Positions 4,987 to 33,600 of a stretch of DNA of 64,000 nt are shown piece by piece. Both the position numbers and the translations under genes were made by a program. This stretch comes from Cyanophora paradoxa CCMP329 (lineage: Eukaryota; Plantae; Glaucophyta), in the NCBI GenBank assembly GCA_004431415.1, contig QPMI01000470.1, forward strand, positions 310,001-374,000, written 5' to 3'. The notes under the pieces were generated by a model that was given only the letters and a program-made list of their open reading frames with translations, searched no databases and was not told the DNA's origin. Within the stretch, counting starts at the first letter, position 1. Every line of letters starts with the position of its first letter.

Positions 4987-5219
4987 CCGTCGCCCGCCGC
5001 GCCGGGCGCGGCCGTCTCGTTCTCGCTCGGGAGATCGGGGGCGGGTGATCGTGGTGTATTTATGCGTCTCGGGGGGTTTTTGTTTTTGGCAGTTGGTCGG
5101 TGGCGAGTTTTTAGAGATGTTTCACTTCTCGTTGTAGTTCTGTCCACCTTGTACTATATTTCTGTCCCGTCGCATTTTGAATTTTGTTTTGCTGTACCAC
5201 CCCTTGTAGGCCCACCCCT

Positions 5220-5813: not shown

Positions 5814-6337
5814 AGCGCTCACAACCCGGCGCCCACCTCAACACGGGGGGTACAGGCCCAGAAGCTGACTCGAGCTCAGTGATGAATCTTAGCCCGCCAC
5901 CATGATCAAGAAGATCGATATTGGACTGACTTCAGCTACAAGAGTTGAGCTATATCTAATTAGTACTTGCGATCGATATGTACGAGTATACGTGCCACCT
6001 AACTTATATATACTTTATGATTATATATACTATGATACTCATGATCATGATCATGATCACTGACATCTTAGCTTCGAGAATACATGACACGAAAGCTTCG
6101 AATTCTCTTTTTTTCAAGCGTCACGATCAAGGTTTTAATTTGGCTTGTTATATATAAGATTATAAGATCGCGATATCATACATAGAAGCGATTAAATATC
6201 TAAATCTAGACCTGTATACGTATATATACGTACATGCGCATGCCGCAGTGCGTACATGTTCCGGTTCATGATCAATTACATAATTGTTTATGATCATGAA
6301 CGTGAAAAAGGGTTGAGAGGTCATGCCATGATCATAA

Positions 6338-6787
6338 TCACTGAGTCAGCGGCCTCTTACGCTTACCCGGACTGTAGCTTTTCGGTAGAGTCGACTTTCT
6401 TACTTTCGAAGTTCCCGACGCCGAGGACTCTGCGCTTGCCAGATCCCATGCGCCGACGATAGCGGATACGGGGGCCCTTGCTGCAAGGCGACCGCTGCAC
6501 GCGAGAAGGTTCGGGGCCCCGAGATAATCGGCGAATACGGCAACCTTGGCCAGCGCCACGAGCTTTGCTAGAGAGTCGTCTGCTGTATCTGAAGGCTCGA
6601 ATAATGACGCTGTGGGAGGGGCTCGAAGGGCGAAGAAGGCACTCCGTAGCGTCTCCGAAGTAAATGGAAGCGGCACGGGAGAAGTGTCGGCGTCACTGCA
6701 AGCTTGCGCATCCTGCAGGACGCTGCTGTCGGCGAGGAGAGCGGGATCGCAATCAAAGACTTCGCCGTCGACGCTGACAAGCAGCAT
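6338..6787 (-). CDS. Skp1/BTB-POZ-like small protein (divergent, possibly degenerate)
   Basis: MLLVSVDGEVFDCD...SSVLQD...PVPLPFTSETL...AVFADYLGAPNLL parallels Skp1 LxSSDGExFxV...S..I...VPLPNV....L...AANYLNIKxLL. Confidence 0.55.
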   Translation of the reverse strand: MLLVSVDGEVFDCDPALLADSSVLQDAQACSDADTSPVPLPFTSETLRSAFFALRAPPTASLFEPSDTADDSLAKLVALAKVAVFADYLGAPNLLACSGRLAARAPVSAIVGAWDLASAESSASGTSKVRKSTLPKSYSPGKRKRPLTQ

Positions 6788-7032
6788 GTAAAAAGCTCAA
6801 AGATTTTTGCTAATCCGAGATCTAGAATGAAAGATGAATTCGAAAACTATATTTTAATAACGATTCGAGAGGTTCTATATGCAGGTACTGCGGTGTACGT
6901 GTCGTTGCGAACGCAAGCTAAGCGCGAGCGACACTGCAAAACTTCATCACAGCGGGCCGGGGTCAGGCGGGCCCGTTTTGAGAAGCCGCCGGGCGCAGCC
7001 GCCGGTGGACTCCATTACGTTGTGCAATCGAA

Positions 7033-16000: not shown

Positions 16001-17221
16001 GCTGGAAACACGAATAGAGTAGACGCCGGAAGGAAATGTATCGTTCAGCACCACGAATGCAGTCGTCTGCTGGAGAGAGTCGGAGATATTAAGAAGCGGT
16101 ATCCAGATGCCGCTGGTTCCCGATTTGCGCCCGATGCTGACGGAGAATACACGAAACGAGGGATCGACATGCCAGGCTATCTCGTGCGTCTTCCCGTACT
16201 TCCAATAGGTCAAGCTCCCGTTGACCGGACTCGTAATCGAAATCCGCGGCACTGCTTGCGTGATCAGTGAACATGGACGACTGTTTCGCGTTCGAATTCA
16301 ATGCGATTCGCGAATATTAGTGCAACTTATTCGTTTCTTTATCGTTTATGTCACAAACCGGGACGAATGAGTATCGGTGTAGATATTGCCAGAGTTTCGG
16401 GGCATCCAGAACTTGTCAGCGCAAAAACATAGCTCCCAGATTGCAGGGACTCTGGTGGCTGCAAAAGAGGTTGTGGTTGTATACACACTAAAACTTTATA
16501 TGTGGGGTAGGATTGCACCGTCCAGTTGTAGCTTCCAGCAAAATTGCTTCCGGAGGGCGCGTCGGTGGCGATCGTAAGAACATCAGAGAGCGAAGTGGAC
16601 TTCAGGACAATGGTCAACGTAGGAATTGTGCCCTGCCAAGTGTATGAAATAATGCACGACCAGCCTGTGAAACATCTCGTGGGAACGGCTGCCGTTATTC
16701 TCGGATACCAGGCTGCATCAATATTAAAGTGACGAAAAGGCGAGCTCGAATTCGAACCGGCGCAGGTCGTGCGCACAGCATTTTGGGGTTAGGCCGCTAC
16801 AAGAACTCATCGCCGATGTGACCCTCCAGTCATAATGATATCCCGTGTTTGTAGCGGCTGGATTGCCTACCGCCGCGGTGACTCGCGCTGGAAAGCAGTC
16901 TGTGCATGCATACGCGGTCAAGCTGGATTCCCCATTCGGGCACGATACGGTCGTGGTACTTTGCCCAGAGAGCGAGGAAGACATTGCCGCCATTGCAATT
17001 TTATTGGACCTGCAAGGAAAAAGGGACTTCGAAAAATCGCAAGATCGAAGCATGCGCAATAAAACAGCTCGAAATAGTCTTATAAGCACAAGGTGCAAAC
17101 CTCGTGTAAAGCCTGATGGATTCATGGTACGGCGAGTTCTCGCTCGTACACTGCATGGAGTACGTGGCAGAACAACCTGTATTTGATTTGTTAAAAACCA
17201 TCGCAGGTTCATTACCATTGC

Positions 17222-17258
<37 letters not shown>

Positions 17259-19033
17259 TATCATTACCAGGGGGTACTGTGAGGGTCGGCAGGTAATCTG
17301 TTCCCTGGAAGCCTGTCGACGCGTAGGTTGGGGGAACAGTGCCAATTTCGTCGCCCGCCAGACCCGGAGGACAAGTCGGCGTCGAGCTTGTAAGGCCTGT
17401 GCACTTGCTCTGACCTAGAGATTCGAAATTAAAGACAGGCTTATCTAGATGTGTCCAGGTGGCTATCTCAGGGGCGAAAGTGCGTATACCTGTGATTAAC
17501 CAGCGTAGAGTTACCCAAGAGCTGGAAGGGAGGGCTGTGGTTCGAATCGTAGAGAAATCGACAAGAGCGCAGCGACCCGCAGCAAAATCCAGCGCTGCCT
17601 CGCTAAATGTGCCCTTCAGAGCTCGAGTATGCATCGTCGCCGAAGTCTTAAAGGCCCCGTTGTGCACATTGACCTGATCCGGACCAGGTTCCGGGAGACT
17701 GAAATACGGGAACGCAAGCTGCACGCTTTGCCCTTCTCCACCGCATATGACTTTGCAGAGTCCAGCGCTGCCCGCTGAGGGCCTCCACGTGTACAGGCCG
17801 CTGGTCTCTTTGTGGAAGGCGCAAGTGGTTTCGTATGGGATCGGGGCCGGCGTCACTGAACGGGCAAAAATTATCGATGCAATGACAGTTTTGCAGGGAT
17901 ACTTGCAGCGCATAAATGAATTTGAATCGCACCAACAGGAGTCGGAGCAACGGCCGCCGCGAGCCCAACGAAACCCGCAAATTGTCTAGCACCGTCCGAT
18001 GAAAATTTCAGCAGCAGACAGTTGGAGAAGGACAGGAATGAGAGAGCCGGATAGCTTCCGCTGTAGCTGCCGAACTTCGAAGCTGCCGAGGCCGTGGTTC
18101 CTGCACGGCCCCCGTCGAAACAAAAGATGTAAAGGATTTATAATAACGTCTTGACGCGCACCATCAAATACGGTTAGGACGTCATATCCGGCCTCAGTGG
18201 CGAAGCTACTGAAGCCGACGAAAATGCGCTGGCGGGTAGCATTCGAAGCGCATACAAGCCAGCAGCTTTTCGTGTTTGCAGCGTACTCCGAGATCCCTGG
18301 AGGGTTACTCTGAATCGATCCTCCGCTGGAGACGGAAACCGTCGAGGGGCAGCTCCACATTTCATTGAGTGGAAGCGTTGCAGCGCTTGATGTGCTCCCC
18401 GGATCCATGCCTGTCAGAAACATGCTAGTAAGCTCATGAGCATTTCATGATGATCAGAGGAATAAAGTATTAATCTATTCTGTTAAATGCGCACTTCCCG
18501 ACGGGTGACCGGACTGCATCATCGGTTGTATATTCGATACCTTTACATTGAGCTTTCTTGTGGCTGTGGTGAAGAACGAGTCTCTAACAGTAACTGTAAT
18601 CTGAAGACAAAATCGTGAGTTCCTCAAAAAGCTGTGGAAGAGCAGTGCTAGTCGAACCACAACTTCGGCGTTCGGGGCGGAAGCGGCAACCGCAAGCTCG
18701 AGAGTATACGATTTCTCGAATCCTGACAGCGTCCAAGTGATGCTTGAAGATGAAGACTCGATGGTGAAGCTCTCAGGAGAGAAAGTGCCTTTGTTGCGGC
18801 TGCTTGCGCGGATTTCGATTGAGTGTTGTGCTCCTGGTGCCAAATTGAGGGAGGGAGGCAACCCCCCGATCACCGGTGCTGTTACGTTCGCACGATATTA
18901 ATCAGCATCCGTACGCGTCTGTCCATATGCATGCAACGACGACACGCGCGCCATAAATAGTCACGGATTTGAGCTCTATCTCGTCTCCGTTGCTTCTCCA
19001 CACCCTTTCAAGTCGATGAAGAGCCCAGTTGCA
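7033..19033 (-). CDS. 3' part of a very large multi-exon secreted/cell-surface protein gene (CUB, Ig-like and Cys-rich modules, Ser/Pro/Thr stalk); 3' end uncertain
   Basis: A chain of minus-strand exons. It includes a CUB exon ([23 protein letters not shown]...[18 protein letters not shown]), Ig-like exons ([24 protein letters not shown]), Cys microexons and the SPSPTA exon. Splice phases match wherever I checked them. Confidence 0.7.
8786..12010 (-). repeat. Coding 18-bp minisatellite, ~180 copies, encoding (SPSPTA)n mucin/extensin-like stalk
   Basis: The unit ggcgacgggctcgcagtg repeats over ~3.2 kb. ORF 8644..12126(-) stays open throughout and is entered through an acceptor (gcag|GTC GAT AGC). 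Confidence 0.95.
12230..14460 (-). other. Array of ~17 phase-0 microexons (about 51-69 nt), each encoding one xDxxxxxCVxxCGxxEY unit
   Basis: Examples: cag|[17 protein letters not shown]|gtgcgt, cag|[17 protein letters not shown]|gtgtgc, cag|[17 protein letters not shown]|gtacgt, cag|[17 protein letters not shown]|gtgcgc, cag|[17 protein letters not shown]|gtgcat. Confidence 0.85.
17224..17256. repeat. (AT)n microsatellite, probably intronic
   Basis: A perfect AT dinucleotide run just upstream of a ctgcaat/cag-type junction in the host gene. Confidence 0.95.
19028..19033. repeat. Target-site duplication GTTGCA, left copy (right copy at 30631-30636)
   Basis: Left junction ccca-GTTGCA-aaaaaatgagagt; right junction actctcatttttt-GTTGCA-caag. 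Confidence 0.9.
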
Positions 19034-19466
19034 AAAAAATGAGAGTACCCCCATCAGGGTGGGCCCGCCCTCTTTGCCACCCTCACCCCTCCAAAACCAC
19101 CCCATCCCACCCACTCCAGCGCCTTCCCAGCCCTCATTCTTTCCCACTCTCTCGCTACGTCTACCGCCCTTCTCTCCCTCTGGTCTACCTCCCCTTCCAT
19201 CCAGCAACCGCTAGGTAGTATCTAACGTCTACTCCAATCGATCTTGCAAAAGATATAGCAGTGATTTGAGACGGGCCCCCAACGCGACGGTCTGCAGAGA
19301 TAGCTTAATCAGCAGCTAGGCGTTAATACTGTGTTCTTCCTATCTAAATAGCGGAGAGGTTTCCAGGTTCTAGCTAGACGATAAAACTATATAATCGAAG
19401 CTGATTGCATATGCGAGTTTAGGTTCTAGTTAGTCAATAATACTGTGTGGATGATAGCGCCGGTCT
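19034..19466 (+). repeat. Left terminal inverted repeat (433 bp)
   Basis: Reverse complement of 30199-30630. The only difference I found is a C5 versus G4 homopolymer indel. The match extends 8 more bp with one mismatch. Confidence 0.95.
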
Positions 19467-19516
19467 GTGAATCAGCGATCTGACACCTATGAGTGAGGTT
19501 GCCTAGAAGCTTGGAG

Positions 19517-19930
19517 ATCTTGGACGTGAACTTTTGTCCAAAGTCACTAGGCGACCTTGGACGTGAACTTTTGTCCAAAGTCACGAACTCCAAAACGCCA
19601 CCCAAGTAAACTAGCAATTCGTGCAGGCGTCTCCTATAGTGCAAACGAGGCTATACTAGAGGTCGGATCGTGCAAAACATGCGTTGGGATGTGCCAGCAG
19701 GGTTGAGGATCTTGGACGTGAACTTTTGTCCAAAGTCACGAACTCCAGAACGACACCCAAGTCAGCTAGCAACTCGTGCAGACATCTCCAATAGTGCAAA
19801 CGAGGCTATACTAGAGGTTGGATTGTGCAAAACATGCGTTGGGATGTGCCAGCAGGGTTGAGGATCTTGGACGTGAACTTTTGTCCAAAGTCGCTTAGCG
19901 ACCTCTGGACGTGAACATTTGTCCAAAGTA
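19517..19930. repeat. Five copies of a dyad motif TTGGAC-gtgaactttt-GTCCAA, partly embedded in two 155-bp tandem units
   Basis: The motif occurs at 19520, 19557, 19712, 19867 and 19905 (variant). Segments 19557-19711 and 19712-19866 are diverged duplicates. Confidence 0.9.
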
Positions 19931-19960
19931 CTTGTGGACATGCCTCGAAGTTTTTTAAAA

Positions 19961-20157
19961 AATAGATATAACCTATGGGCATTGCCCAGAAGTATTAAAA
20001 GAATAGATATTACCTATAGGCATTGCCCAGAAGTATTAAAAGAATAGATATCACCTATGGGCATTGCCCAGAAGTATTAAAAGAATAGATATTACCTTTG
20101 GGCATTGCCCAGAAGTATTAAAAGAATAGATATTACCTTTGGGCATTGCCCAGAAGT
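19961..20157. repeat. Five tandem 41-bp repeats with the palindrome TGGGCA-T-TGCCCA
   Basis: aatagatat recurs at 19961, 20002, 20043, 20084 and 20125. An inverted partial copy (ttaatacttctggacattgcc) follows at ~20171. Confidence 0.92.
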
Positions 20158-20187
20158 TACTTAATATATATTAATACTTCTGGACAT

Positions 20188-20307
20188 TGCCAGCATAGAA
20201 GTTTAGAAACTAATATTTCACTTTTATGCCAGCATAGAAGTTTAGAAACTAATACTTCACTTTTATGCCAGCATAGAAGTTTAGAAACTAATACTTCACT
20301 TTTATGC
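20188..20307. repeat. Three tandem 39-bp repeats
   Basis: tgccagcatagaagtttagaaactaatayttcactttta starts at 20188, 20227 and 20266. Confidence 0.92.
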
Positions 20308-20361
20308 TAGCTTACTGTAATTCGACCATTTTTCGGGTAAGACTTTCTCTGCGCCACTCGG

Positions 20362-21009
20362 TCACTCCCAGCGATGCCGGAGCCCTAGCTTAGTGAAGCC
20401 GCTCAGCATTGGCTTGTACTCGATCGCCGGCCCGACAGGATCAGCACTGCTAGAGGCGATGCGCAGGATCGATGCGTTAGCTACAGGCAGCTCGCTAGCA
20501 TTCTCATCGACCTCAGGGATCGCAACGATCGTCTTGGCAGGAACAGCAGCTGCAGGAGGGGCAACCTTCTTCTCGATCTTTGTCTTCGTGATCGGTTCAT
20601 TTAAAATCTTGTTTTCCATCTTAGTCTCAGCCGCGATGCCAGCTATAAGGTCACTAGCTCGCTTCTTTGAAACTGTCTTAAGACCGGTCACAGTTTTAAT
20701 GAAATACCTGCTACGATTAGCCGTCTCTGAGATGTACAGCGGCCCATCGTCAGTATCCTTTAGCTTGCTAGTCTTGGTCTTCTTAGTCCGCGAATTCGGG
20801 ATCTTATCAAGAATAGCGTTCTCGTCGGCGGTAAGAGCGTAATCGATGGATGCACCCTCACCGCCACCAGCGCGACGGACTAGCGGGTAAGCACCAGTAT
20901 CACCACTCAAGAACTCGATGTGATTCTTCTTAGTAGGGCTGGAAGCGACTTCAAGCTGCGGAGTGCGCAGCCGAGACTGCATGTCTGTCGACTTCTTTCG
21001 CGGAGGCAT
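20362..21009 (-). CDS. Viral hypothetical protein, Lys-rich (possible core/DNA-condensing protein)
   Basis: Intronless 215-aa ORF starting MPPRKKS, just downstream of the penton gene. I recognise no family. Confidence 0.65.
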   Translation of the reverse strand: MPPRKKSTDMQSRLRTPQLEVASSPTKKNHIEFLSGDTGAYPLVRRAGGGEGASIDYALTADENAILDKIPNSRTKKTKTSKLKDTDDGPLYISETANRSRYFIKTVTGLKTVSKKRASDLIAGIAAETKMENKILNEPITKTKIEKKVAPPAAAVPAKTIVAIPEVDENASELPVANASILRIASSSADPVGPAIEYKPMLSGFTKLGLRHRWE

Positions 21010-21035
21010 CTTTTAACTAAGCAGTGGGAAAAAAC

Positions 21036-21914
21036 TTATGCGAACGATCTGTCGAAGGGGACGTACTCGCTGGCTGCATTCTTAATTGCGGATTTAGCAG
21101 CAGCAGACGTGTAAGAGACATCCTCGATATCGAACTCTAGCACGAACGAGAACTCTGTGTTTGTGACAGCGTCTGTTCCATTATGATAGCGCAGCGATAT
21201 GTCAAGTTCAGACAGCTCAGCGTTTCGATCGAAGCCTGTGACGGGAACACGATCCTCAGATGTGAACTTGATGAGCTCCCCGAATTTTGAGTCGATGTGA
21301 ATCTTTGCGATCGAGCCCGTTGTATAGGGGTTAAGTGTCAAGATCGGGCCTTTGATCTGCTGAATGTACAGGAACAAATACGTGTGATAAAGTAGATCAA
21401 CTGGCATATCGCTGAACAGCTCGTACGAATATTGTACGCCATCGATTGTCTCAGGTGTGTCAAGCTCACTGGAAAGGTCACTGAGAGTCTTCGCAAACCC
21501 GAGCAGGTTCGATAGTTCGGCCGATGTGAAGCTCAAAATAAAGTCCGCTTCACACAGGAACCTAAGCCGCATTGAGATCTCTTCGAACTGAACGACGAAC
21601 TTGCGCTGATAAGTAGTTCCGCCGTAACTATACTGCTGGGTTTTAAGAAGCGTGCTTAGATAGTTTGCAAGGGAGGTTGGCGTATAGACTCCGGGCTTGA
21701 AAGTGTTGGCACGTGTTTTCTCAACGCCAGAGGGATCAAGGGTGCCGGTGATAATTGCGGCTTGTGTGGACAGGTTGAACATGTTATGAAACAGTTCTAG
21801 CGAATCAACTCGCACCGACTTTACATTAACGAGGGGCCTTGGGAGATTGATCTTGAAATTCGAGGACGTGCCTTCGAACCGGTCCCTAGAATCGACATTT
21901 ACGCGGAGCTTCAT
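21036..21914 (-). CDS. Putative minor capsid (penton) protein, DSRDR type
   Basis: MKLRVNVDSRDRFEGTSSNFKINLPRPLVNVKSVRVDSLELFHNMFN...PGVYT..SLA...YLFLYI...LSELDISLRYHNG....EFSFVLEF matches the single jelly-roll penton pattern of NCLDVs and polinton-like viruses. Alternative start at 21932. Confidence 0.8.
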   Translation of the reverse strand: MKLRVNVDSRDRFEGTSSNFKINLPRPLVNVKSVRVDSLELFHNMFNLSTQAAIITGTLDPSGVEKTRANTFKPGVYTPTSLANYLSTLLKTQQYSYGGTTYQRKFVVQFEEISMRLRFLCEADFILSFTSAELSNLLGFAKTLSDLSSELDTPETIDGVQYSYELFSDMPVDLLYHTYLFLYIQQIKGPILTLNPYTTGSIAKIHIDSKFGELIKFTSEDRVPVTGFDRNAELSELDISLRYHNGTDAVTNTEFSFVLEFDIEDVSYTSAAAKSAIKNAASEYVPFDRSFA

Positions 21915-21958
21915 CTTTACAACAATATGCATGAAAATTTTCTGGTCTATAATAGCAA

Positions 21959-23188
21959 ATGGCGCAAGCAGGAACAACTCTAAAGGAGCTCCTCACTACC
22001 AAAGGTTCAAGCGAACTTTATTTATCCCCAGGTCTCACTGTCGGTGTCAGCCCCAAGTTCAAGCCTTTCCTTGAAACGATCCGTCCGCGAGGCAACTCGT
22101 ACGGCTTCGCGCAGACTGCCGCTTTCGACCTTCCGCGCAAGCAGCTTCTAAACGGTGTCTCGCTATACTTTAAGGTCAGCGTCGCTGGCGGAGCTGCCGC
22201 CTCGGTGCTGCCTAATGGCGCTGGTGCATTTATTGAAAACGTGCGCTTTGTTCATGGATCCTTCAAGATGGTGATCCCTGGAGACTGGCTCACTGTGAAC
22301 GCGCTCATTGATAATAGCGTTGCGTCCGCCCAGGCTTTTGCTAGCAGCTACGGCTTTGGAAAGGACGCGGCTCTTGAGATTCTCGATGCGAGTCGCGAGT
22401 ACGTACTAAAGATCCCCTCCCAGCTCTGGGACAATTCGTACTTCCCGCTGCTCGCACTGGCTGACATGCCAACCGTCGAAATTGACTTCCGTTCGGCTGG
22501 CGTGGTTGGAACTGTCGCTAGTGCTGTTGCAACTCTAACGGATTGTGCCCTGGTTTGCCAGTTCGTGAATATCCCTAGCGAAGAGGCTGAGTCTATGCTT
22601 AAATCTGCAAACGAGAGCGGTGGTATTCGAATTCCTTTCACCGAGATTATTTCAAAGCGCTCGAGGCAGTTAAAGACTGACGACGCGGGGAATGCAGTCG
22701 AAATCTCCCTTGCCAACGTCAGCGGCCTTGTGCACGCGATCCTGATGACAGTGCGTAATGCGAATCACCTGGGCACTCGCAATCACAATTCATTTGCTGG
22801 CAACGGAAATGCGCTGAAAATCGATTCGTTTGAGATCATGCACAACAACCGAACTCTCGACATCAGCAATAAGCCAATCTCTGGGTTTGTATCATCGTGC
22901 TATCACATTCCAACTCAATACCGCGGTGCAACCACTGGCAATTCAGCCCTTGGCTTCGAGGACGGAAATGTCTATGGGATTGTGCTTTCGAAATCTGGCA
23001 AAGACTCACTGCATAACGCTGTCCTCGGCTACACAGACTTCTTTAATTCCAGCAGCAGCTACTGCTCGCTAACTGTGACCGGCTGCACAAACGCAGCGCC
23101 AGCAGTTGTTGACTTCCACGTCCTGCGCCACAATGTTCTCGTAATTAACTCGTATCAAATGTCAACTCTAAAGGTAAGTAACTTCTAG
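21959..23188 (+). CDS. Major capsid protein, double jelly-roll, NCLDV-like
   Basis: 409 aa. Blocks collinear with the NCLDV MCP consensus: FDLPRKQLLNGVSLYF, FIENVRFVHG...IPGDWL, LKIPSQLW...FPLLAL...VEIDFR, ALVCQFVNIPSEE, and C-terminal HVLRHNVLVI. It lies between the penton and ATPase genes. Confidence 0.85.
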   Translation: MAQAGTTLKELLTTKGSSELYLSPGLTVGVSPKFKPFLETIRPRGNSYGFAQTAAFDLPRKQLLNGVSLYFKVSVAGGAAASVLPNGAGAFIENVRFVHGSFKMVIPGDWLTVNALIDNSVASAQAFASSYGFGKDAALEILDASREYVLKIPSQLWDNSYFPLLALADMPTVEIDFRSAGVVGTVASAVATLTDCALVCQFVNIPSEEAESMLKSANESGGIRIPFTEIISKRSRQLKTDDAGNAVEISLANVSGLVHAILMTVRNANHLGTRNHNSFAGNGNALKIDSFEIMHNNRTLDISNKPISGFVSSCYHIPTQYRGATTGNSALGFEDGNVYGIVLSKSGKDSLHNAVLGYTDFFNSSSSYCSLTVTGCTNAAPAVVDFHVLRHNVLVINSYQMSTLKVSNF

Positions 23189-23904
23189 ATGGATATCAAA
23201 CTGTTTGATCCTACAGAAATAAAACTGCCTAAACGGTTCTTGTTTGTCGGCCCCACCAACTCGGGAAAAAGCACCTACGTTAAACACGTATTAAATGCAG
23301 TAGCTCCGCAGCTAGACGATATCTTCGTATTTAGTACCACAGCATTTACAGAACAGTGGGACGACACGACTCGCTCAAACAATATTCACGAAGAATGGGA
23401 TCCAGTTTTGGTTGAGAGTCTTCTAGAGCAACAAAAGAAAGGCGACGCAAGAAAGATGAGCGCAAGATTGCAATCGTTCTAGATGATTTGCTCGATAATG
23501 ACCTTGTGAACGTCCACAGCGACCGATTAATGCAAAAGCTTTTTACTAGTGGGCGTCATTATAACATGAGCCTTTTTGTAACCACTCAACGTCTTTGTGG
23601 AATCAGCCCTACAGTTCGAAGGAATTGCGAGTACGTCTGTTTCTCATCAATTCTCTCAAACGTTAAAGAGTTCAACTGCGTTTTCGACGAATACAACGCC
23701 GGAGCGACTCGAGCAAATCTAATGCGTCTTTTCGTTGAATTGAATCATTCGTATCAGGTTTTGATATATGAAGCTGCGACCGCGGACCGCGTTTATTCTG
23801 TTGACAAATCGTCTGGAACGACTTCGGCTCTATTGCGCTTTGTGCGCGTAAAAAAGCAGCGCGATCAAAAGTCGGTAGCCAAGGCTGTCGCAACAACCAG
23901 CTAG
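23189..23904 (+). CDS. A32-like (FtsK/HerA) genome packaging ATPase, split by one frameshift near 23435
   Basis: Walker A GPTNSGKS is in the first frame. Walker B IAIVLDD and LFTSGRHYNMSLFVTTQ...ISPTVRRN are in the -1 frame. Adding one A to the CAAAAG run gives QKERRRKKDERKIAIVLDD. Confidence 0.92.
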
Positions 23905-24055
23905 TATATTCCGGTTTCGCTGAGGCAATCCACAGGAACGATGTGCCCTTGTAAATGCCGAACGAAATCAGATGATCAGGCGATTCGTGAGTTCTTCCAG
24001 GCCAGCAGTCTTCGAGATTAAACTCTTCCTCTACCGTTTCGAATTCGAGTTCCAT
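23672..24055 (-). CDS. Small viral protein with an FGxYKG motif (DUF3820 / ExoX C-terminal-like)
   Basis: LISFGIYKGTSFLWIASAKPEYTSWLL fits the FGKYKG...I....P.Y..WL pattern. The long antisense overlap with the ATPase makes the 3' end uncertain. Confidence 0.55.
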   Translation of the reverse strand: MELEFETVEEEFNLEDCWPGRTHESPDHLISFGIYKGTSFLWIASAKPEYTSWLLRQPWLPTFDRAAFLRAQSAIEPKSFQTICQQNKRGPRSQLHISKPDTNDSIQRKDALDLLESLRRCIRRKRS

Positions 24056-24116
24056 TAAAAAAATAATCGGCAGACAAGCTGCCTCGGCTGCGCCCAAGGG
24101 GTGTTATTCCCTTCAT

Positions 24117-24647
24117 TCAAACCTGTGGGAAGTTCAACCGCAAGAATGGTTTGTCCTCTTCGCTGGTATGTTCCAATGCATATGCATCGCGAGCACGAGC
24201 TGCAGCCTCTGCTGTTTGAAACAGACCGATGTGCTTTTGGCGGTCATTTATCTTATAGTATGCTTTCCATTTACCATGTTGCTGATGGAAGCTGACGCCA
24301 ATGTATCCTGAAGTGTTATCTCGCCGCTGTCCACGATTCAAATTCTGTTGACGAGCTGTTGCTAAACGGAGGTTGTCGCGACGATTGTCTTTTGGATCGT
24401 TGTTGATATGATCTAACGTCAACCCATTCTCAAGATTGCCACTGATGAATGTATGCAAGTACACGCTCTTTCCGTTGATTTTGGCTCGAGCATATCCATT
24501 GTCCAAACTCCAGCGAAATCCCAGCACACGCTCAGCATCATCGTGTGACACGAGAGCGTAGGCGACGATGACTTTGCGTCGATTGCGAATTCCTATCAGC
24601 GGGATCAAAGCAGTGCCCTCTGGTACATCAGGAACGATAACCTCCAT
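24117..24647 (-). CDS. HNH endonuclease with C-terminal AP2 DNA-binding domain
   Basis: HNH part: YLHTFI...LDHINNDPKDNRRDNLRLAT..QQNLN. AP2 part: NTSGYIGVSF...KWKAY...KHIGLFQTAEAAARARD. First ATG is at 24647. Confidence 0.92.
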   Translation of the reverse strand: MEVIVPDVPEGTALIPLIGIRNRRKVIVAYALVSHDDAERVLGFRWSLDNGYARAKINGKSVYLHTFISGNLENGLTLDHINNDPKDNRRDNLRLATARQQNLNRGQRRDNTSGYIGVSFHQQHGKWKAYYKINDRQKHIGLFQTAEAAARARDAYALEHTSEEDKPFLRLNFPQV

Positions 24648-24778
24648 CTGCGCAGCGAGCTGCTTGTCTGCGACTTTTTTGTTACATCTACAGATTGCAT
24701 TATCTTTAAGCCTCAAAAGTCGCGCTAATTTGTCTTAAAAGGATTTATGTCTCTTATTATTGAGAGACAAGCCGAACA

Positions 24779-25123
24779 ATGACTTCTGCAATTACTGCGG
24801 ATTGCGCTGCGGTTAAACGTGGCCGTGGGCGACCTCCTAAGGTTCGTCTTTTAACAATGGAGCCTTATCAGCCGAAGAAGAAGGGTCCTAAACCGATCGA
24901 GGTCACCCCGGAGATTTTAGCAGAGCGACGCAGAAAGAATGCTGAACGCAATCGCAAACTGCGCCACACGAACGAAACATACCGTTTGAAACAGCTTGCC
25001 ATCACAGCGAAGTATCGAGCTGAGAATCCTGATCGGATCCGGGAGTACCACAGGAATGCTATTGCGCGTAGATGCCTCGCGAAGAGCGGAGCTTCTGTAG
25101 AGCTCGAGGTGATGCAGCTTTAG
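24779..25123 (+). CDS. Small basic AT-hook protein
   Basis: AT-hook KRGRGRPPK followed by an Arg/Lys-rich helix (ERRRKNAERNRKLR...KYRAENPDRIREY). Confidence 0.7.
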   Translation: MTSAITADCAAVKRGRGRPPKVRLLTMEPYQPKKKGPKPIEVTPEILAERRRKNAERNRKLRHTNETYRLKQLAITAKYRAENPDRIREYHRNAIARRCLAKSGASVELEVMQL

Positions 25124-26009
25124 CACCTGCTCGTAGCTTTGGCTCCCCTGCAATCTCAAGCTTCTTGAGCTCTCGATACTGCCGGCTTTGGCCGCTGTAT
25201 TTTTTCGTTTCGATCAAACCCTCACGTCTCAATCGTCTCTGCTGTCGCATTTGCACTTCTTCTTTTTCGATTCGTGTTTGAGGTGCAAGCTCACGCGGTT
25301 GACGTATTTCCGATGGTTTAACACGTCTAGAAATTTCCACACCCTGTTTCGTAACGAGTCGAACACGGTTCTTATCAGCGCCAGCAACTATGTACGTCTC
25401 CTTGCTTGGCTTTGTGGTTCCCTTCGCAAAAACGCTTGGCTTCGGCTCGAGAACTTGCACTTCGGTCCCTGTGCGCGGTATGTTCGAATTGTCTCGTTCA
25501 ATATCGTTCTGTCGCTGTCTAACTTGATGCAGCTGCTCGGCTACCTGTGTATTTTCCCGCATCCACTTCGGTGAGTGCTCCCCGCCGAAAGAGCTGTGGG
25601 CTGTTTCATTGTACGCCTTGACAATTGCCGGCAAACGTGAGAGGAAATGCGGGGAGCCACGAGCTTCTGTATCAGTCTGAATCAGTGCTCGCAATGTCCT
25701 CGCGAACCTGTCGATAATTCCCAGCTTGGAGCCTTTTGAAATGTGATCATCCTTAGCCACATCAGTATGCATTTTCAACGAGTTCTCTTCAGCCATTTCC
25801 CGAATTGCCGCTGTGTTGAAGCCGTTGTCTCCTGAAAAGCCCCATATTCCAGGTAGCTGCTCGATCATTTTTGGAAGCTGCTTAAAAGTCTCGAGCTTAC
25901 GTACCACAGCGAAACGGGTTGCAATCTCGACCGCTGCGAACAGGCGAAATCTCCCAATGAACAGCACGTCAATTTGCCACGCACCCGGTGGCGCAGTAAT
26001 CTGGTACAT
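25059..26009 (-). CDS. Retroviral-like (rve) integrase
   Basis: WQIDVLF...AVEIATRF...FSGDNGF...LGIIDRFARTLR...LPAIVKAYNETAHSS...SP is the RNase H-fold integrase core. The third acidic residue is D, and there is no HHCC domain. Confidence 0.9.
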   Translation of the reverse strand: MYQITAPPGAWQIDVLFIGRFRLFAAVEIATRFAVVRKLETFKQLPKMIEQLPGIWGFSGDNGFNTAAIREMAEENSLKMHTDVAKDDHISKGSKLGIIDRFARTLRALIQTDTEARGSPHFLSRLPAIVKAYNETAHSSFGGEHSPKWMRENTQVAEQLHQVRQRQNDIERDNSNIPRTGTEVQVLEPKPSVFAKGTTKPSKETYIVAGADKNRVRLVTKQGVEISRRVKPSEIRQPRELAPQTRIEKEEVQMRQQRRLRREGLIETKKYSGQSRQYRELKKLEIAGEPKLRAGAKAASPRALQKLRSSRGIYAQ

Positions 26010-26018
26010 CGTTGTAAA

Positions 26019-29000
26019 TCAGGCGCGATTTTTATAATGGCCAATCGCTCGGGTGTTGATCCCGTCAGTCTCGAGGAAGCGTTTGGTATCAAGGGGATGG
26101 AGAGCCTGGCGCGAGGTTCGTTGTAAATAAATCTCATGTTGTTTCGAGCGGAAACCGAGAATTCCTTTGATGTCATACGATTGCTTTTCTCCCTCTTTAG
26201 GACAGACGCACCGGAGGAATACATCCCTTGTGAGTCTGTTGTAGTACGTCTTTTGAATACCCTTGCATACCTGCTTGTCCGTGCAATCTTCACGCGAATA
26301 ATAGTAAGATTTCGGCCGGTTAGCGATCCACTCTGTCATTTGCAGACCATGGAGCTCATCCTTGAATAATCCCGGAGTTTTCCCCATCGATCGTAGAGCT
26401 CGAACCTCATCGGCTGTCATGCCATCGAAGAATCGATGTGTCTCTGGGTAGTCGCTAACATCCAGCTCATGCTTGATTGAGCATAAATCAGCATAGATAT
26501 CTTTGGTGCGAACCTCGATGATGAGACTGTCAGTATCCGTACCTAATAGTGTCAGCCGCTGGCCCCAAAGCGGCTTGAGCACCTGGTAGTAAAAGCGGTA
26601 CATGTGCAGCTTGGAAAGTTCGAGGATGACGAACCCGCAGTAGATAGGTTTGTTCAGATTGTACTCACTTTTGCGCTTGGAAACGAATACAAGGTTCTCT
26701 TCGTACATCACCACCTGCTTCAACCGATTTGGTTCGCTGTTGATCTTCACCAGACGGTCTCCCGAAGTCACAAGCTCTGAAAAGCAGTGCTTTCTCACGT
26801 TCTCCATCGTCTTTCCGAAGACACTGTTGTTCATCAACTTGTAAAGGTCCTTCTGGTATGTGAACTGCGATTCTTTACGTTTTTGAGTATTGAGATCTAT
26901 GAAACGCCCTAGCCATGCGCTTTGTTCGTACGATAGGACCCGATGGATGTTGGTTACTATCATTCCCAGTGACGTATAGAGCTGAAGCAAGCGTCCATCA
27001 ACAACATAATTCTTTTTGGAAGCAGATTCGGAACGAGCTTTGGAGTTCGTTCAACTGAGGTAAGCTTCTCGTCGTTAATCATATCCTGTTGTCGCTTTGA
27101 TAGGTGTTCCTTGGACACACACATCCGTTCAGGGCCAGCGGATAGTCTGAGAACTCGTCGTGGAGATGCTCAGGCATGTACATATCGACTTCGAGAGCAT
27201 AGCCACGAGCTCCATCCGCGTCAAGGCTTGCAACGTATTGCATTACATCGACGTCTTGATCTAGTTTATCCCAGCGGAAATCTCCTGTGGGTAGCTTGCG
27301 CTTCATTGCGACGCCGTACAAGTTGTTTGCATCGAGGTACATGAGCCACGATTCCTTGTGTGTTCGGTAGTAGTTAGACATGCATGTAGACTGTGAGACT
27401 GTAGGCTCAACAGCGTGGGTGTATTTGTTGAACTTTATGCTCAAATATTTGTTCTCAGCTTGTGCGTAGCGTTTTGAGATCATTGAGATTCCGCCCCTGA
27501 TCCCCGATTCTATAAATCTGTGCATATCCTGCTGTCCCTCGTGAAAGAGCTCGAGCTTCACTCCAGTGTGCTTAAGTGCTGCCTGCCAAGCAAATCCCGG
27601 CGATGACATAAAATAGCTAGGATCTAGGCCATACGTTTCAATACACGTATCGCGATAGTTTTCGAACACGTCCGCTAGTAACGTGATATCTGTCATCATA
27701 TACTCCATTGTATAGTCTGATAGCATTCTGCAGCCGAGCTCTCGCCAAACATCCTTGGCATGTGCGTACTCATCTTTCGAGCATTTCTTCTGTTTAAGCT
27801 GATTTTTGAAATAACGACGTGCAGGTAGTTTAGTCTCTTGAAAGCGAGCCCAGCTCGTCATGTAATCATAAGGGTAAATGCCTTTGCCTGTCATCAGCTT
27901 GAACTGAGTCTCGTCCAGATGCAGCGAGCGCGTGATCTTCTTCTTTTCCGCGGGCAGAGCCTTTGCTAGTTCGTCCAAGCTTGCATTCAAGTGCTGAGCC
28001 GAGTCGCGTAGAACGTAAATTCCATACTTGAACTGCGAAATTCGCTCGCTATTCTGAAAGAACTGATCGAATTTTATCGAAAGGAGACTCTGCGGGCGGA
28101 GCCGGCGTTCGAGCCCCTTCTTCACCTTCTTTTTCTGCTCTGGGGTCATCTCACGTCCACCGTACTTGCTTTCAAACTCGCTTTCGACATGTGCTTGAAA
28201 CTCCTTCCAAACTGCTAAACGGCGATTATAGCCAGATGCTAGAGCGCGCACGAGCAGGTGGAAGTCAAATCCTCGACCATTGTGCCAGAATATTGGAACG
28301 GCTGCTGCCTTTGCGCGACGCCGATTGCACGCTCTGCAGGCGGCCCCGAGGTATCGTCCAGAATCGTGGCAGTGATCGCGGTGCTTGTCTTTCGCATCCT
28401 TGAACGTGTCCGTGCACATGTAGCACTCGGTCCTCGTTTGAAAACGCTGCTCCTCTTCCTGAGTCATCTGGATTGGTGCAGTCTCTCGCAAGAGCTCTCG
28501 AAATTGTGGTTCCATTTCGTCCAACCATTGCACGAACTTCTCAGCGCAGTCCTCGCTCTCCGAACCCATGTATTTGAAACAAAATTGTTCACCTTTCGAA
28601 GATACAACCAGACAGCCGACTGAAGCAATCACATGCACACCTTTCTTTTCGGTCTTTCCACTAATGCAGGGAATCGGCATTGTAATCGTCTCTGAATCAG
28701 CATATCCGACCAGACGTTGCCGGATTGAGTACTCATAGTTAATAAACTTCTGGATGTGGGCTCCTTTTCTAGGCAGAACATCTCTCGCATGCTCGTCTCG
28801 ATCGAGGCAACGGTCATATTTAAGATGATTCTCAAACGCAGCACCTGAGCTAAAACCTGTTTGACACGCAAGACAATAGTGTTTGGCGGGAGAATCATGT
28901 TTTCCAAACAGACGTGAGATGTTCTTGATCCAGAGATAATGCCCTACATCATTGTCGCTGCCTGCAGGTACATACAAGATTGGTATTGCGTCTTTTGCTG

Positions 29001-30074
29001 CGCTGATATGGATTGGTACAATGTCCTGTTCATCTAATGCTGTCGTATAAATACATAGGTTTACGTTGTTAGCCTGCTCGAACTTTTTGAAAACCTTTGA
29101 ATCTAGCGGGGTGGGAAATGTGAGCATAGTGCAGTCTAAAGAGCTCTCATACGGTCGATAATGACAAGCACTGCGTGAATCCTGGCCCGGTCGTAGCGCG
29201 TGCTGAGCTGCAAGTACAGCATACTTGAAGCATTCATTGTTCGGAGCATCGATATTGATGAGTGCCTGCTTCTCCACAAGCCACCGCGGGAGTATGAACC
29301 TACGTCCACGACCACCCATGCGGCGGAAGTATCGCACAGTTTTAAAGACCAGATGTATCCATGTGTCGAAAACTGAGGAATCCCTGCTTTTCTCTGTCGC
29401 AAGAATGTCTAGTTCTTCCAGCTGTGAGCGCAGAGCAGTCTCGATGCTTGCCCCTGGCTCGATGCGATCGAAACGACGATGCTCAATAATGATTGCAATT
29501 GTTGTATCAGTCTCTGGCTTTCTGTATACCGCTAATCCAGAGATTTGTAGTGCAATGCCCATTCTTACCGCCTCTGCAAGATTTACCTGGGCGCTAACGA
29601 ATGCTATTGCGTTCTGTTTGAAAAGTTCGTTGTTCTCAAATCGGGCTTGCATCGAGGTTACGCGGCCAGAACCGCGAGGCAATTGGTATTTCCACTCCGC
29701 ATATCGCCCGTCAAGCGCTGTAGTCGTATTGCTGTCATTGATTTGAACATCATCTCCACCGTCAACCTCAGGTAATTCTGAGAACCCTCGAACAATGTCG
29801 GCCTGGCCTCAGCAATCGCTAGCTCTAGTCGACGACCTGACACAGGACGCGCTGACCTAGGAAGTCTTGCAAGTTCGTTCAAAAGTGAAGCGTACTTTTC
29901 CAAAGTTGCAAACCGTGTTCTCGACCCTTGTGCTGAAATTCTAATCAATTTATTTTTGAAAGCTCCATGTATGACGCGTCGATTATACAATGAAATCGCG
30001 AGCGCTTCGATCTGGTCTTTGATTCTGGCCAACCGGAAGCGCCGAGTCGCTGCATTATTTTGGGTAACGTCCAT
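26019..30074 (-). CDS. polB: Protein-primed family B DNA polymerase (~1350 aa after repair of three frameshifts), with N-terminal TP/vOTU-like region, Zn finger and EndoVII-like insert
   Basis: Exonuclease motifs YADSET, WHNGRGFD and YMMTDITLL; KGIYPY; GIRGG; motif A YLDANNLYG; motif B KLMNNSVFGK; motif C GTDTDS. N-terminal INIDAPNNECFKYAV...GHYLWIK. Insert CYMC...RDHCHDSGRYLGAACRACN. Frameshifts near 29805, 27133 and 27015. Confidence 0.95.
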
Positions 30075-30198
30075 TGGAAGTATATATCACAATTTTTTTG
30101 CTTGTTCCAAACGCAACTTCACATAGCAATATTGGAAAGGGATCTCTTTAAGACAAAATAAGAGAAACCTCAATTGCGGTGACCCGTTGGTGATTCAA

Positions 30199-30630
30199 AG
30201 ACCGGCGCTATCATCCACACAGTATTATTGACTAACTAGAACCTAAACTCGCATATGCAATCAGCTTCGATTATATAGTTTTATCGTCTAGCTAGAACCT
30301 GGAAACCTCTCCGCTATTTAGATAGGAAGAACACAGTATTAACGCCTAGCTGCTGATTAAGCTATCTCTGCAGACCGTCGCGTTGGGGCCCGTCTCAAAT
30401 CACTGCTATATCTTTTGCAAGATCGATTGGAGTAGACGTTAGATACTACCTAGCGGTTGCTGGATGGAAGGGGAGGTAGACCAGAGGGAGAGAAGGGCGG
30501 TAGACGTAGCGAGAGAGTGGGAAAGAATGAGGGCTGGGAAGGCGCTGGAGTGGGTGGGATGGGGTGGTTTTGGAGGGGTGAGGGTGGCAAAGAGGGCGGG
30601 CCCACCCTGATGGGGGTACTCTCATTTTTT
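30199..30630 (-). repeat. Right terminal inverted repeat (432 bp)
   Basis: Reverse complement of 19034-19466; ends ...actctcatttttt. Confidence 0.95.
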
Positions 30631-33600
30631 GTTGCACAAGTCTCGGAGAAGCGAGTTCGCAATTTCGCATAGAGGCTCGCTTGCGACATTGTACGCATTC
30701 AGTGTGTACCCCCCGCTTATAGTAATCTGAATGCACACGCAGACCGGAAATCTCGGATCAATTGCACCAATGTCGATTTCATTGAAATCTAGATGGGGCT
30801 AATGTATACGTAGCTGGCTTACCCCGGTTCCGCCGTAGGCATCTGTTTGCGCTGCGACTCGCATGTAAAAACCAGCGGGAAAGTAGGAGGCTTCGAATCG
30901 ATAAAGTAACGGTATTTGAATAATTAAACTGAGTCTGCAATCGTGCAGCCACATCAAATTCATGAAGATATATGCTCACAGGGTATGCGTACCCTGGAGC
31001 GATGTATGCGGTGATTGAATTCGAGTCGGGGCATTCGAGTCTTGGTTCGAAAACGGGTTTTCCGATGCCTCCTCTTTGAACCTGAAGCGCTCAGATTCGT
31101 GATCACGCGTACGGTGGGGTCGCGATATCCATGATTTTGACTCAATGCATTTTGCGCACGACTCCATAATCAGGACTTTTGTCGGAATAAGGGCTGTAAA
31201 TACCCTGCTTGTAGTAGATTCCCCTGTATTCCAAATTTGAACCCAGTGTGTCAGAACAATCGCGAGTCCATTGCACTCTATAGCTAGATCTAACGTGGCG
31301 CGCACATGTAAAGTTCTTCAGATTGCATGCGAACGTCGAGGTACGCGATAATTGGTGTTCTCAACTCGAACTCAACTTTACCTGTAACGCCGAGGAACGC
31401 CACAAGATCGATCTGGTCAGGAAATGCGCCATCCATTGCGATCAGATCTACATGCAGAATTCGCGTAAACATCATGCGCGAAGCTTGAAGTGAAACTCGC
31501 CTTCGCGCCGGCAAGATTCGGGGAAGTCGAGAATGGAATAATCGGAATCAATGGAAAAAGACTGCGGAAATAGCTGAGAATGGCCGTGTGAAGCTTTAAG
31601 GACACACAAATATGTTGGTTACTCAAACGAAATTTCTGCAAATACCTCATCGTGAGCTTCCAGTCCATTCGAAAAATAAAATCTATACCAAGACCGATGT
31701 CGAAATATATGCTTGGGCGCTCCCATTTGCGCTCTTCCGACCAGAAATCCACTGTAAACGCGACTTTGACCTCGAGCTGCAGATAGATCGACATCTCGAC
31801 CGAGCAGGGATCGCACTGGAGAGTCACTCCTCCGCCGAACGTATTTCTATATGGAAAGTTCTTATCTGCTCGCAAACAACACGCATGGTGTAAGCGTAAG
31901 CTTTTCCAGATGCAGGCGCTGGCGCGGCTCTTTCTTGTTACGACTGAGTCGCGGTTGCGCACTGATTGCGTACGGAAACCGATATCGCATGACTGGAAAT
32001 TCGATCTCGTACGTCCAAAGTAGCGAACGCAATCTTTCAAGCTGTTGCCGTCGGACATCACTGCTTCCGGATCCTGAATCTTGATTACTGGCGTTAACGT
32101 TCACGTTGTGCATGCTCTCTTCATTTTCCAAGTGGTCCGGGTTTGAATATGTGTCCGTTTCTTCGAAGGGAGTACTAGTGTCCACAAAGAGCTGGATGTG
32201 GGCGGCATAAAACAGGTCCTATAGCGTTGACAAATGAGTTGCACGTGCGAGTACTAGTGTATCACGCGAAAATGATATATATATAGCCCTGGTCGAACCG
32301 TGAAAAGCACTGGGATGGAGCCAACTGCTATGGAAGCCTCCGTAGCACTCGTGCTCGAGCTCCGGATTGATATCCGGTCAGGTTCGTACGTGTGTTGTAG
32401 AACAGCCGGAACATGCGTGACTCGTCGGATGATGCTTTGGAGCTCTAGATCTCCGTTACCGGCGCAGTTGTGTTCGCCACCAGAGCTGAGCAGCGCCCCT
32501 GGAGTCCACGCGCCGATGGCGTCCGCCGCCGGGGAAGGCCAGCGCGTCCGGAAAATGAGGCGATGCGGCTCGCACTCGATGGACAGAAGCCCGGGTGCAG
32601 CAGCGAAGACGTCGTCCAGGTGGATGCGTTCCTTGCGGGACTGCACGGCGTATCGCAGCATGGCCGCCACAGGCTCAGGCTCTGGCTCTGGCTCCTCGGA
32701 ATCGCGATCGGAGTCCTCGGAACGCGCGCGATCTCGTTGCGTGGATCCATGGGCCCGTCTACGCCGTTCGCTCGTGCTGTTGTGTCTGGTGCCCGCGTGT
32801 GCGTGGTTGCAAAAGCGGGCCCTCGTTCCCACTGGGTGGCGTATGGTTTCTTCGAAGACTTGCCACGGAGCTGAGGGATGGAAATGCATCTGCTCCGCAT
32901 GATCATGATCACGATGATCATCAGCCGTAGTGGCCCCATTTGGGCCTGTGTGGTTCTTTGATCGATATCCTAACCGTGTGGACAGTTAACCGAAAAAGAG
33001 GCGTTCGTGCTTATGTTGAGTTTAGAGACGCCAAGAGTTGCGGAGGCGAGCGCTGCAGGGGCGGGGATGCAACTTGAATCACTTGAACGTTTCCCCAGCT
33101 CGAGCTCGCGATCGAAAGGGTGCGAGGGACGACGATGCTGAGAAGCGTGCATCAATTCATCAAAGGTTATCCGCGGCCGGCGGCTATCCTGCGAGCTCGG
33201 GTCACTTACGCTTGCGTGCGCTCTTGATCTTGATTCGGATCTGGCCTTATAACCACCACTGCTGGCATCCTGATTATAATGAGACTCATCGCCCTCGAAG
33301 GTCTCGTCTGCAGTGTAGTGCATGTTGGTTTGGCATGTACGTTCCGCGCGCCAGACGCTGTCAAAGTGCTTCTTTACTCGCGCATTTTCCTCCATATCAA
33401 AGGGTCTTCTGGCGAATGCCGGAGTATCTCTATACGACCGCACGGTGCGATGCCGCGCTCCAAAGCCAGGTGGAGTGCTCGTTCGCGTTCCTTGACGAGA
33501 GCGAGAGTCTGCAGTCACGAGAACTTAGTCAGATCGATGTCGATCTTATATATCTGCCTGTTCATAAATTGCATTAGTTGAGTGCCTGTGCGCGCACCGC

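Follow-up and report, generated by a model that had tools for sequence, protein, structure and literature searches.

An 11.6-kb multi-copy element of Cyanophora paradoxa, read as a polinton-like provirus of mosaic gene content whose capsid lineage is unplaced

The stretch analyzed here (the window) comprises 64,000 nucleotides of the Cyanophora paradoxa CCMP329 genome (contig QPMI01000470.1, positions 310,001 to 374,000, forward strand), and all coordinates are counted from its first nucleotide. Positions 19034 to 30630 are occupied by an element of 11,597 bp (48% GC), which is real and unusually small. We judge, with a probability of about 0.6, that it is a multi-copy endogenous polinton-like provirus of mosaic gene content and of an unplaced capsid lineage, and not a shown evolutionary bridge. 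Its size lies below the ranges quoted for related viruses (15 to 30 kb and 14 to 40 kb); no size record is claimed. The features that carry this reading are as follows.

19028..19033: left target site duplication (TSD), GTTGCA, identical to the hexamer at the right end
19034..19474, plus strand: left terminal inverted repeat (TIR), about 440 bp, from the TIR alignment; other flanks join the same end
21036..21932, minus strand: probable penton (minor capsid protein), 298 aa, from ESM Atlas features and position
21959..23188, plus strand: major capsid protein (MCP), 409 aa, predicted double jelly roll leaning toward the nucleocytoplasmic large DNA viruses (NCLDV), from AlphaFold2 (AF2), Foldseek, VIA-align, and hhalign
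23189..23904, plus strand: A32-like packaging ATPase with a frame break, from a weak Pox_A32 match
25059..26009, minus strand: rve-type integrase (INT), 316 aa, with the triad D-D-D and the N-terminal extension missing
26019..30074, minus strand: DNA polymerase B of the protein-primed type (pPolB), with an N-terminal region, a vOTU domain, an exonuclease with an EndoVII-like insert, and a palm
30191..30630, minus strand: right TIR, from the TIR alignment
30631..30636: right TSD, GTTGCA, identical to the hexamer at the left end

Aligned over 441 and 440 bp, the two TIRs differ by a single indel and a single mismatch. The TIRs and the TSD named in the first-pass annotation of this DNA were borne out, the TSD being 6 bp long. 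The nine genes that it had listed were also recovered, including after the split pPolB pieces were merged. From left to right these encode a basic protein of 215 aa (minus strand), the penton (minus), the MCP (plus), the A32 ATPase (plus), a 127-aa protein with an FGxYKG motif (minus), an HNH-AP2 protein (minus), an AT-hook-like protein (plus), the integrase (minus), and pPolB (minus). The penton and MCP genes are arranged head-to-head, 26 bp apart. Together the nine genes cover 81.6% of the element, and the noncoding remainder is made up of the TIRs, of gaps of 9 to 131 bp, and of the three tandem arrays located at the left end. Longer gaps occur only at the two ends, both of which contain TIRs or tandem arrays.

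Approximately 0.7 of the element's words were found in 20 of the 24 public runs listed, all of which carry one organism label. In run X1, the summed contig depth was ~1,100 to 3,200 over the element versus 85 to 89 in the flanks, and the element-to-flank ratio, which is not a copy number, was ~20 in X1, X6, and X10. In each of the four DNA runs examined, a flank contig enters the left TIR, and in these runs the same terminus is joined by four other flank sequences. Of these four, one ends in a hexamer and another in the reverse complement of that hexamer; the pair may represent opposite sides of a second insertion, one that carries a duplication of 6 bp. Many substitutions separate the copies (40 listed and 219 more). 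These observations support a multi-copy element that was recently integrated and recently mobile and that occupies several insertion sites. The element had been proposed to be possibly still active, but near-identical TIRs and several insertion sites indicate recent mobility and no more, and the suggestion of present activity is left unsupported. None of the runs listed as carrying the element is an RNA run, and the one possible RNA run examined gave two short contigs.

The first-pass annotation listed the ATPase and pPolB genes and missed their frame breaks. Both genes are present, and in the window they are split by one and three frame breaks, respectively. The ATPase gene is interrupted near 23432 into ORF pieces of 97 and 124 aa, with the Walker A and Walker B motifs in different frames, and the pPolB gene is interrupted near 27012, 27131, and 29806 into pieces of 138, 857, and 314 aa; the pPolB length of ~1,350 aa was obtained by arithmetic across the breaks. 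In runs X1, X6, and X10, every listed contig covering any of the four positions carries a one-base indel relative to the window. With contigs from three DNA runs departing from the window by a single base at every one of these positions, the four breaks are probably assembly errors, and a frame-break assembly artifact has been reported in such elements before (Bellas 2023, PMC10120064; here and below, portions of the text and tables of the cited papers are drawn on). Contigs drop rare variants, and therefore this copy may still carry private mutations. The break at 29806 identifies the extra 138-aa ORF as the pPolB N terminus, and the gene count therefore remains nine.

The MCP has four sequence relatives (26% to 30% identity) among 1.84 billion representatives; one of these is a C. 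paradoxa protein, and another, P0003, comes from an ENA assembly of another source. The MCP sequence had no match in a set of 5.8 billion, in which a five-sequence profile retrieved only P0004. No match was found in IMG/VR with the MCP, with a three-sequence MCP alignment, or with P0003, nor in the JGI metagenomes with the MCP alignment, nor among PDB sequences with the MCP. An AF2 model built on five sequences reached a pLDDT of 63 and a pTM of 0.71 (AF2 on the single sequence gave a pLDDT of 30). When this model was used as a Foldseek query, the SGIV and PBCV-1 capsids were on top (E, 2e-17; TM, 0.63 to 0.68) and mavirus was lower (0.49). VIA-align aligned 341 residues of the model with the PBCV-1 chain (Z, 30.6; rmsd, 2.8) and 343 with Sputnik (Z, 17.5; rmsd, 4.0), and Z was 12.5 for the adenovirus hexon. 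The predicted structure thus supports a double jelly roll.

For profile comparison, a motif search located 146 NCLDV loci; these contained 52 complete MCPs, of which 20 were kept to make an NCLDV MCP profile. Against it, the five-sequence MCP family aligned over 336 columns with a probability of 97% (E, 7.6e-11), and the three-sequence family reached 91% (score, 56), versus 21.6% (score, 35) for three Maverick-type MCPs, 6.6% for virophage-type MCPs, and 0.9% for Gossevirus-like MCPs; the profiles compared are of unequal depth (20 versus 2 to 5 sequences) and include no Aquintoviricetes or Mriyavirus control. Aligned directly with Maverick-type, virophage-type, and Gossevirus-like MCPs, the family gave 1.2%, 0.3%, and 0.15%, respectively; the Gossevirus-like MCPs (n = 2) were labeled by eye from the Table S3 sequence. 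As single sequences, however, one Maverick-type MCP scored higher against the NCLDV profile (12.6 bits) than the window MCP did (8.6 bits). Of the NCLDV-type MCP proposed by the first-pass annotation, the predicted double jelly roll and a lean toward NCLDV at the profile level hold, whereas the single-sequence score does not bear the label out. By sequence and model, the capsid appears to lean toward NCLDV.

These profile values, together with the presence of Capsid_N in 12% to 18% of the members of the MCP's ESM Atlas neighbors, are what could be expected of a surviving intermediate, that is, a polinton whose capsid module is sister to that of the giant viruses and was inherited together with its replication module. 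We consider this very unlikely. Besides the single-sequence scores, NCLDV top matches are usual for MCPs of protist endogenous viral elements: in a portion of Table S2 of Bellas 2023 (PMC10120064), 13 of 15 rows name a hit, and for 12 of these the top match is an NCLDV MCP; such a match is therefore not diagnostic. The discussion of that paper states that most Polinton and polinton-like virus (PLV) MCPs resemble NCLDV capsids. The glaucophyte ATPases of Bulzu 2025 (PMC12220804), counted in bulk and not split by family, include 107 of PLV type and 1 of NCLDV type. In addition, no Pfam match to HUH, VLTF2/3, or other NCLDV genes was found among the ORFs of the element.

The 298-aa protein is a probable penton based on its position and on ESM Atlas features, which gave 0.97 to 0.98 to viral clusters, including those with DUF5901 in 17% of the members and Sputnik V18/19 in 26%. 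It had no sequence homologue in the 5.8-billion set and no Pfam match. Both ATPase pieces matched Pox_A32 (E, 0.028 and 0.0032), below the curated cutoff, and an ATPase piece had no match in IMG/VR.

The replication and integration module belongs to a widespread type. Pfam domains DNA_pol_B_2 (E, 4.8e-9) and Endonuclease_7 (E, 7.8e-7) were identified in pPolB, which has relatives on 13 IMG/VR contigs (26% to 41% identity). The Cys/His pair of its vOTU domain and its Exo and Pol motifs align with those of all 12 full-length relatives (the fragmented L015 was excluded); the C-terminal piece as a query had no match in IMG/VR. The capsids found beside these relatives vary: three contigs carry Maverick-type MCPs (PF21738), two carry Sputnik-type MCPs, two carry MCPs that are Gossevirus-like by eye, and none was identified in six. 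None of these MCPs matches the MCP family of the window. The integrase had no Pfam match and no match in the JGI metagenomes, and its label relies on BLAST matches to the rve-type ORFs of the relatives L001 to L004 (22% to 26% identity; E, 6e-18 to 4e-9) and on its putative acidic triad. The pPolB and integrase genes are in the same frame, separated by a single TGA (26019 to 26021). A readthrough fusion of the two as a conserved feature was rejected, the genes being in frame in one of four relatives (L001 to L004, by coordinates). On a pPolB-bearing IMG/VR contig (L016, positions 6207 to 7595), we observed an ORF joining phospholipase A2-like and ADP-ribosyltransferase-like domains.

In the literature, pPolB and the DDE integrase stay together across capsid types (Barth et al. 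2026), and 28 viruses with the Polinton gene set fall into at least eight clusters (Bellas and Sommaruga 2021, PMC7805220). Related PolB/INT variants have been noted in C. paradoxa contigs (Starrett et al. 2021, PMC8502044). Among 156 Glaucocystophyceae elements in Bulzu 2025 (PMC12220804), pPolB (PF03175) was counted in 49, rve in 85, HNH_3 in 40, and a protease in none, the last with nine profiles.

An adenain-type protease was searched for with a profile, itself shallow, of five protease-like ORFs from related loci against 347 six-frame segments, and the best match had an E value of 0.81; no unassigned coding space is left in the element for such a gene. The element had been described as having no protease. 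This holds for a capsid maturation protease but not for the vOTU-type Cys/His pair in pPolB, and as read from its sequence, the element has a predicted cysteine protease domain without an adenain-type gene. A module without a protease is typical of Aquintoviricetes (Bulzu 2025, PMC12220804), and absence of the protease is described as the norm outside Polintons, virophages, and Gosseviruses.

The element is not a member of Polintoviricetes, Virophaviricetes, or Mriyaviricetes. (i) It shares pPolB, an rve integrase, long TIRs, and a 6-bp TSD with Polintoviricetes but has neither their adenain-like maturation protease nor a Maverick-type MCP: PF21738 matched three control MCPs at E values of ≤1e-41 and did not match the window MCP or its four relatives. 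(ii) The virophage-type MCP of Virophaviricetes is absent, PF21915/PF22031 matching two controls and not the window MCP. (iii) Mriyaviricetes have genomes of 35 to 45 kb, an HUH endonuclease, VLTF2/3, and no integrase, whereas the element has 11,597 bp and an rve integrase. Gossevirus (GKS1) usually has a cysteine protease, and none besides the vOTU domain is present here. The gene set of Aquintoviricetes, namely MCP, minor capsid protein, and A32 ATPase without a protease, is found in the element. We file the element as a member of a glaucophyte PLV lineage that is unplaced and has been catalogued before.

Residues 27 to 396 of the window MCP correspond by eye to the sequence of the C. paradoxa entry gene_58741 in Table S2 of Bellas 2023 (PMC10120064), for which the HHpred match (96.91%) is the MCP of Trichoplusia ni ascovirus. 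NCLDV-type matches are reported there for five further C. paradoxa MCPs, as are several diverged MCP versions in this organism, and Table S4 assigns 366 MCP hits to clusters 21 and 29, both termed new, unnamed, and holding C. paradoxa MCPs. The window MCP presumably belongs to one of these two clusters. The proposal of an undescribed system is not supported, since the same MCP with its NCLDV-type HHpred match is in that table and the gene combination has been reported before. Nor is that of a bridging lineage, as absence of a protease is common and pPolB with rve beside varied capsids is documented mosaicism. The first-pass annotation would have given up its proposal if the MCP lacked a double jelly roll or fell in a described group with the same gene set; the double jelly roll is upheld by prediction, and a published cluster contains the MCP, albeit one without a name or a described gene map. 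In the open literature, we found no main-text account of this family covering architecture, size, TSD, copies, or placement; genome maps and deposited files of Bellas 2023 and Bulzu 2025 may show it.

Among known systems, the closest in gene content differ in other respects. Mavericks/Polintons, including adintoviruses with a vOTU-PF03175 PolB, share pPolB with vOTU, rve, long TIRs, a 6-bp TSD, and the A32 ATPase; the window element differs from these in its MCP, which is not of the PF21738 type, in its lack of adenain, in its shorter genome, and in having a nonanimal host. Mriyaviricetes (Yaravirus and NCLDV-dwarf-like viruses) share an NCLDV-like capsid module in a small genome but not pPolB and rve. 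VC20-type amoebozoan "Polintons" (PMC7805220) have pPolB and RVE beside an MCP matching the iridovirus MCP (HHpred, 90.2%); they belong to a different host group and are likened to the window element by description only. Zoravirus VC102, Zephyrvirus, VC40, VC134, VC218, and Alpenseevirus GKS2 share a small genome, an NCLDV-leaning MCP, and a variable replication module, with rve common in Zora and VC218 and pPolB in some Zephyr genomes (Bellas and Sommaruga 2026, 10.64898/2026.06.19.733378). The sizes stated there for the NCLDV-related small viruses are 15 to 30 kb, many carry Mriya48, HUH, VLTF3, methylases, or lipases, and no endogenous Zephyr was found in that work, whereas the window element has 11.6 kb, is endogenous, and shows no HUH, VLTF3, methylase, or lipase.

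We propose that the element likely copies itself as linear DNA and likely integrates through its own rve integrase. From what is known of the family, the pPolB N terminus would be a terminal protein serving as primer for synthesis from the ends of the TIRs, and the vOTU domain would cut it off, as Krupovic 2024 proposed for the vOTU of pPolB. The A32 ATPase would load the genome of 11 to 11.6 kb into a small double jelly-roll capsid, predicted to mature without an adenain protease. Exchange of modules, a frequent event among such viruses, most likely brought the NCLDV-leaning capsid module together with the pPolB-INT module, which is widespread, and the pair is not taken to represent an ancestral intermediate.

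Since the element has no transcription genes, it would depend on the nuclear RNA polymerase II of its host. The same lack could instead point to a virophage-like provirus that stays silent until a giant virus infects, uses the transcription machinery of this helper, and may lower its yield. Such behavior is known from Gezel-14T, endogenous Tsv-S elements, and the PLVs of C. parva, the pPolB and rve setup is common to mavirus and the window element, and HNH-family matches occur in NCLDV loci, though HNH genes are common. We nevertheless regard helper dependence as unlikely, as the MCP is not of virophage type and no helper for this host was found in the literature searched.

A self-synthesizing transposon that spreads only inside the nucleus, with capsid genes that are relics or rarely used, would fit the missing maturation protease, the absence of close relatives from IMG/VR and the JGI metagenomes, and the finding of just four MCP relatives, one of them from C. 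paradoxa itself. Such a life cycle seems improbable to us, however, because neither the MCP frame nor the penton frame is interrupted in the window, with no indel inside either among the contig differences listed, and because the genes for MCP, penton, and ATPase stay together as a tight module. The several diverged MCP versions in C. paradoxa suggest long-term selection, and P0003 shows that the MCP family has a member from another source.

Several points weigh against a polinton-like provirus that replicates, integrates, and is packaged by its own genes. As assembled, the copy in the window has broken frames, and the open frames in the pooled contigs may sit on different molecules. The MCP model rests on five sequences, and its pLDDT is below 50 in 129 of the 409 residues. 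The third acidic residue of the integrase is Asp, whereas it is Glu in all six relatives compared, and the N-terminal part present in all six is missing; a sibling element may therefore supply the integrase. In a pPolB tree (13 sequences, 764 columns, no outgroup), the window sequence is on a long, unresolved branch, and the direction of module exchange therefore cannot be read from it. Particles, free linear DNA, and capsid protein are predicted from the genes.

The other features of the element are as follows.

19556..20311, left end only: noncoding tandem arrays of 155 bp (x2.2), 41 bp (x5.0), and 39 bp (x3.2)
20362..21009, minus strand: basic hypothetical protein, 215 aa, pI 9.7, from the ORF list
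23672..24055, minus strand: 127-aa protein with the FGxYKG motif, an ORF overlapping the 3' end of the ATPase gene
24056..24683, minus strand: what looks like an optional HNH-AP2 endonuclease cassette (ORF, 24117 to 24647), from HNH_3, AP2, and an inverted repeat
24779..25123, plus strand: very basic 114-aa protein, pI 10.7, with AT-hook-like RGRP motifs noted by eye

The HNH-AP2 ORF matched HNH_3 (E, 2.9e-9) and AP2 (E, 1.4e-5) and is bracketed by an imperfect inverted repeat of ~38 nt (24056 to 24093 and ~24649 to 24683), the score of which was reached by none of 5,000 shuffles. Contigs of three DNA runs, accounting for about a quarter of the local depth, skip positions 24072 to 24676, and other contigs diverge at 24060 to 24097, the cassette edge. 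The site looks like an exchangeable or variable cargo slot that is absent from some copies. HNH-AP2 insertions reportedly occur in the Tlr elements of Tetrahymena as well. A review mentions Tetrahymena HNH-AP2 proteins.

The left-end tandem arrays vary among copies, with contigs of other copies diverging at 19461 and 20362. The 215-aa protein had no Pfam, PHROG, or NCBIfam match and is a candidate core or DNA-binding protein. Within the 5' part of its ORF (20944 to 21019), the run contigs contain deletions of 15 to 18 bases and a duplication of 42 bases, and therefore its N terminus differs between copies. The 127-aa protein weakly matched the C terminus of exodeoxyribonuclease X (E, 0.032), and no Pfam match was found for the 114-aa AT-hook-like protein.

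Just left of the insertion, on the minus strand, lie one or more host genes (8644 to 12126 and 14388 to 18444) with a 177-copy 18-bp repeat that is rich in Ser, Pro, Thr, and Ala; weak IPT/TIG and weak CUB matches were also seen. Further to the left, a minus-strand block of 72% to 80% GC (394 to 5121) contains intron-split ORFs with a putative resemblance by eye to tyrosine recombinases. Five pieces of these ORFs had no Pfam match, and the resemblance was not confirmed by Pfam.

At present, the polinton-like provirus adds one annotated member to the catalogued endogenous viruses of protists. We further suggest, tentatively and as something possible rather than probable, that the glaucophyte elements are a deep branch of the Nucleocytoviricota-related small viruses, in which the 11.0- to 11.6-kb family would be a minimal, still mobile member, combining a full terminal protein-vOTU-pPolB and rve module with a giant-virus-type capsid. 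If so, the group would gain an endogenous member in a culturable host, with a cargo slot for HNH-AP2 bounded by inverted repeats. The relationship of giant-virus capsids to the capsids of polintons and PLVs is an open question, and metagenomes are the sole source of most NCLDV-leaning small viruses, which come without an assigned host. A very compact multi-copy element in a cultured glaucophyte would allow tests of particle formation without a maturation protease and of the need for a helper.

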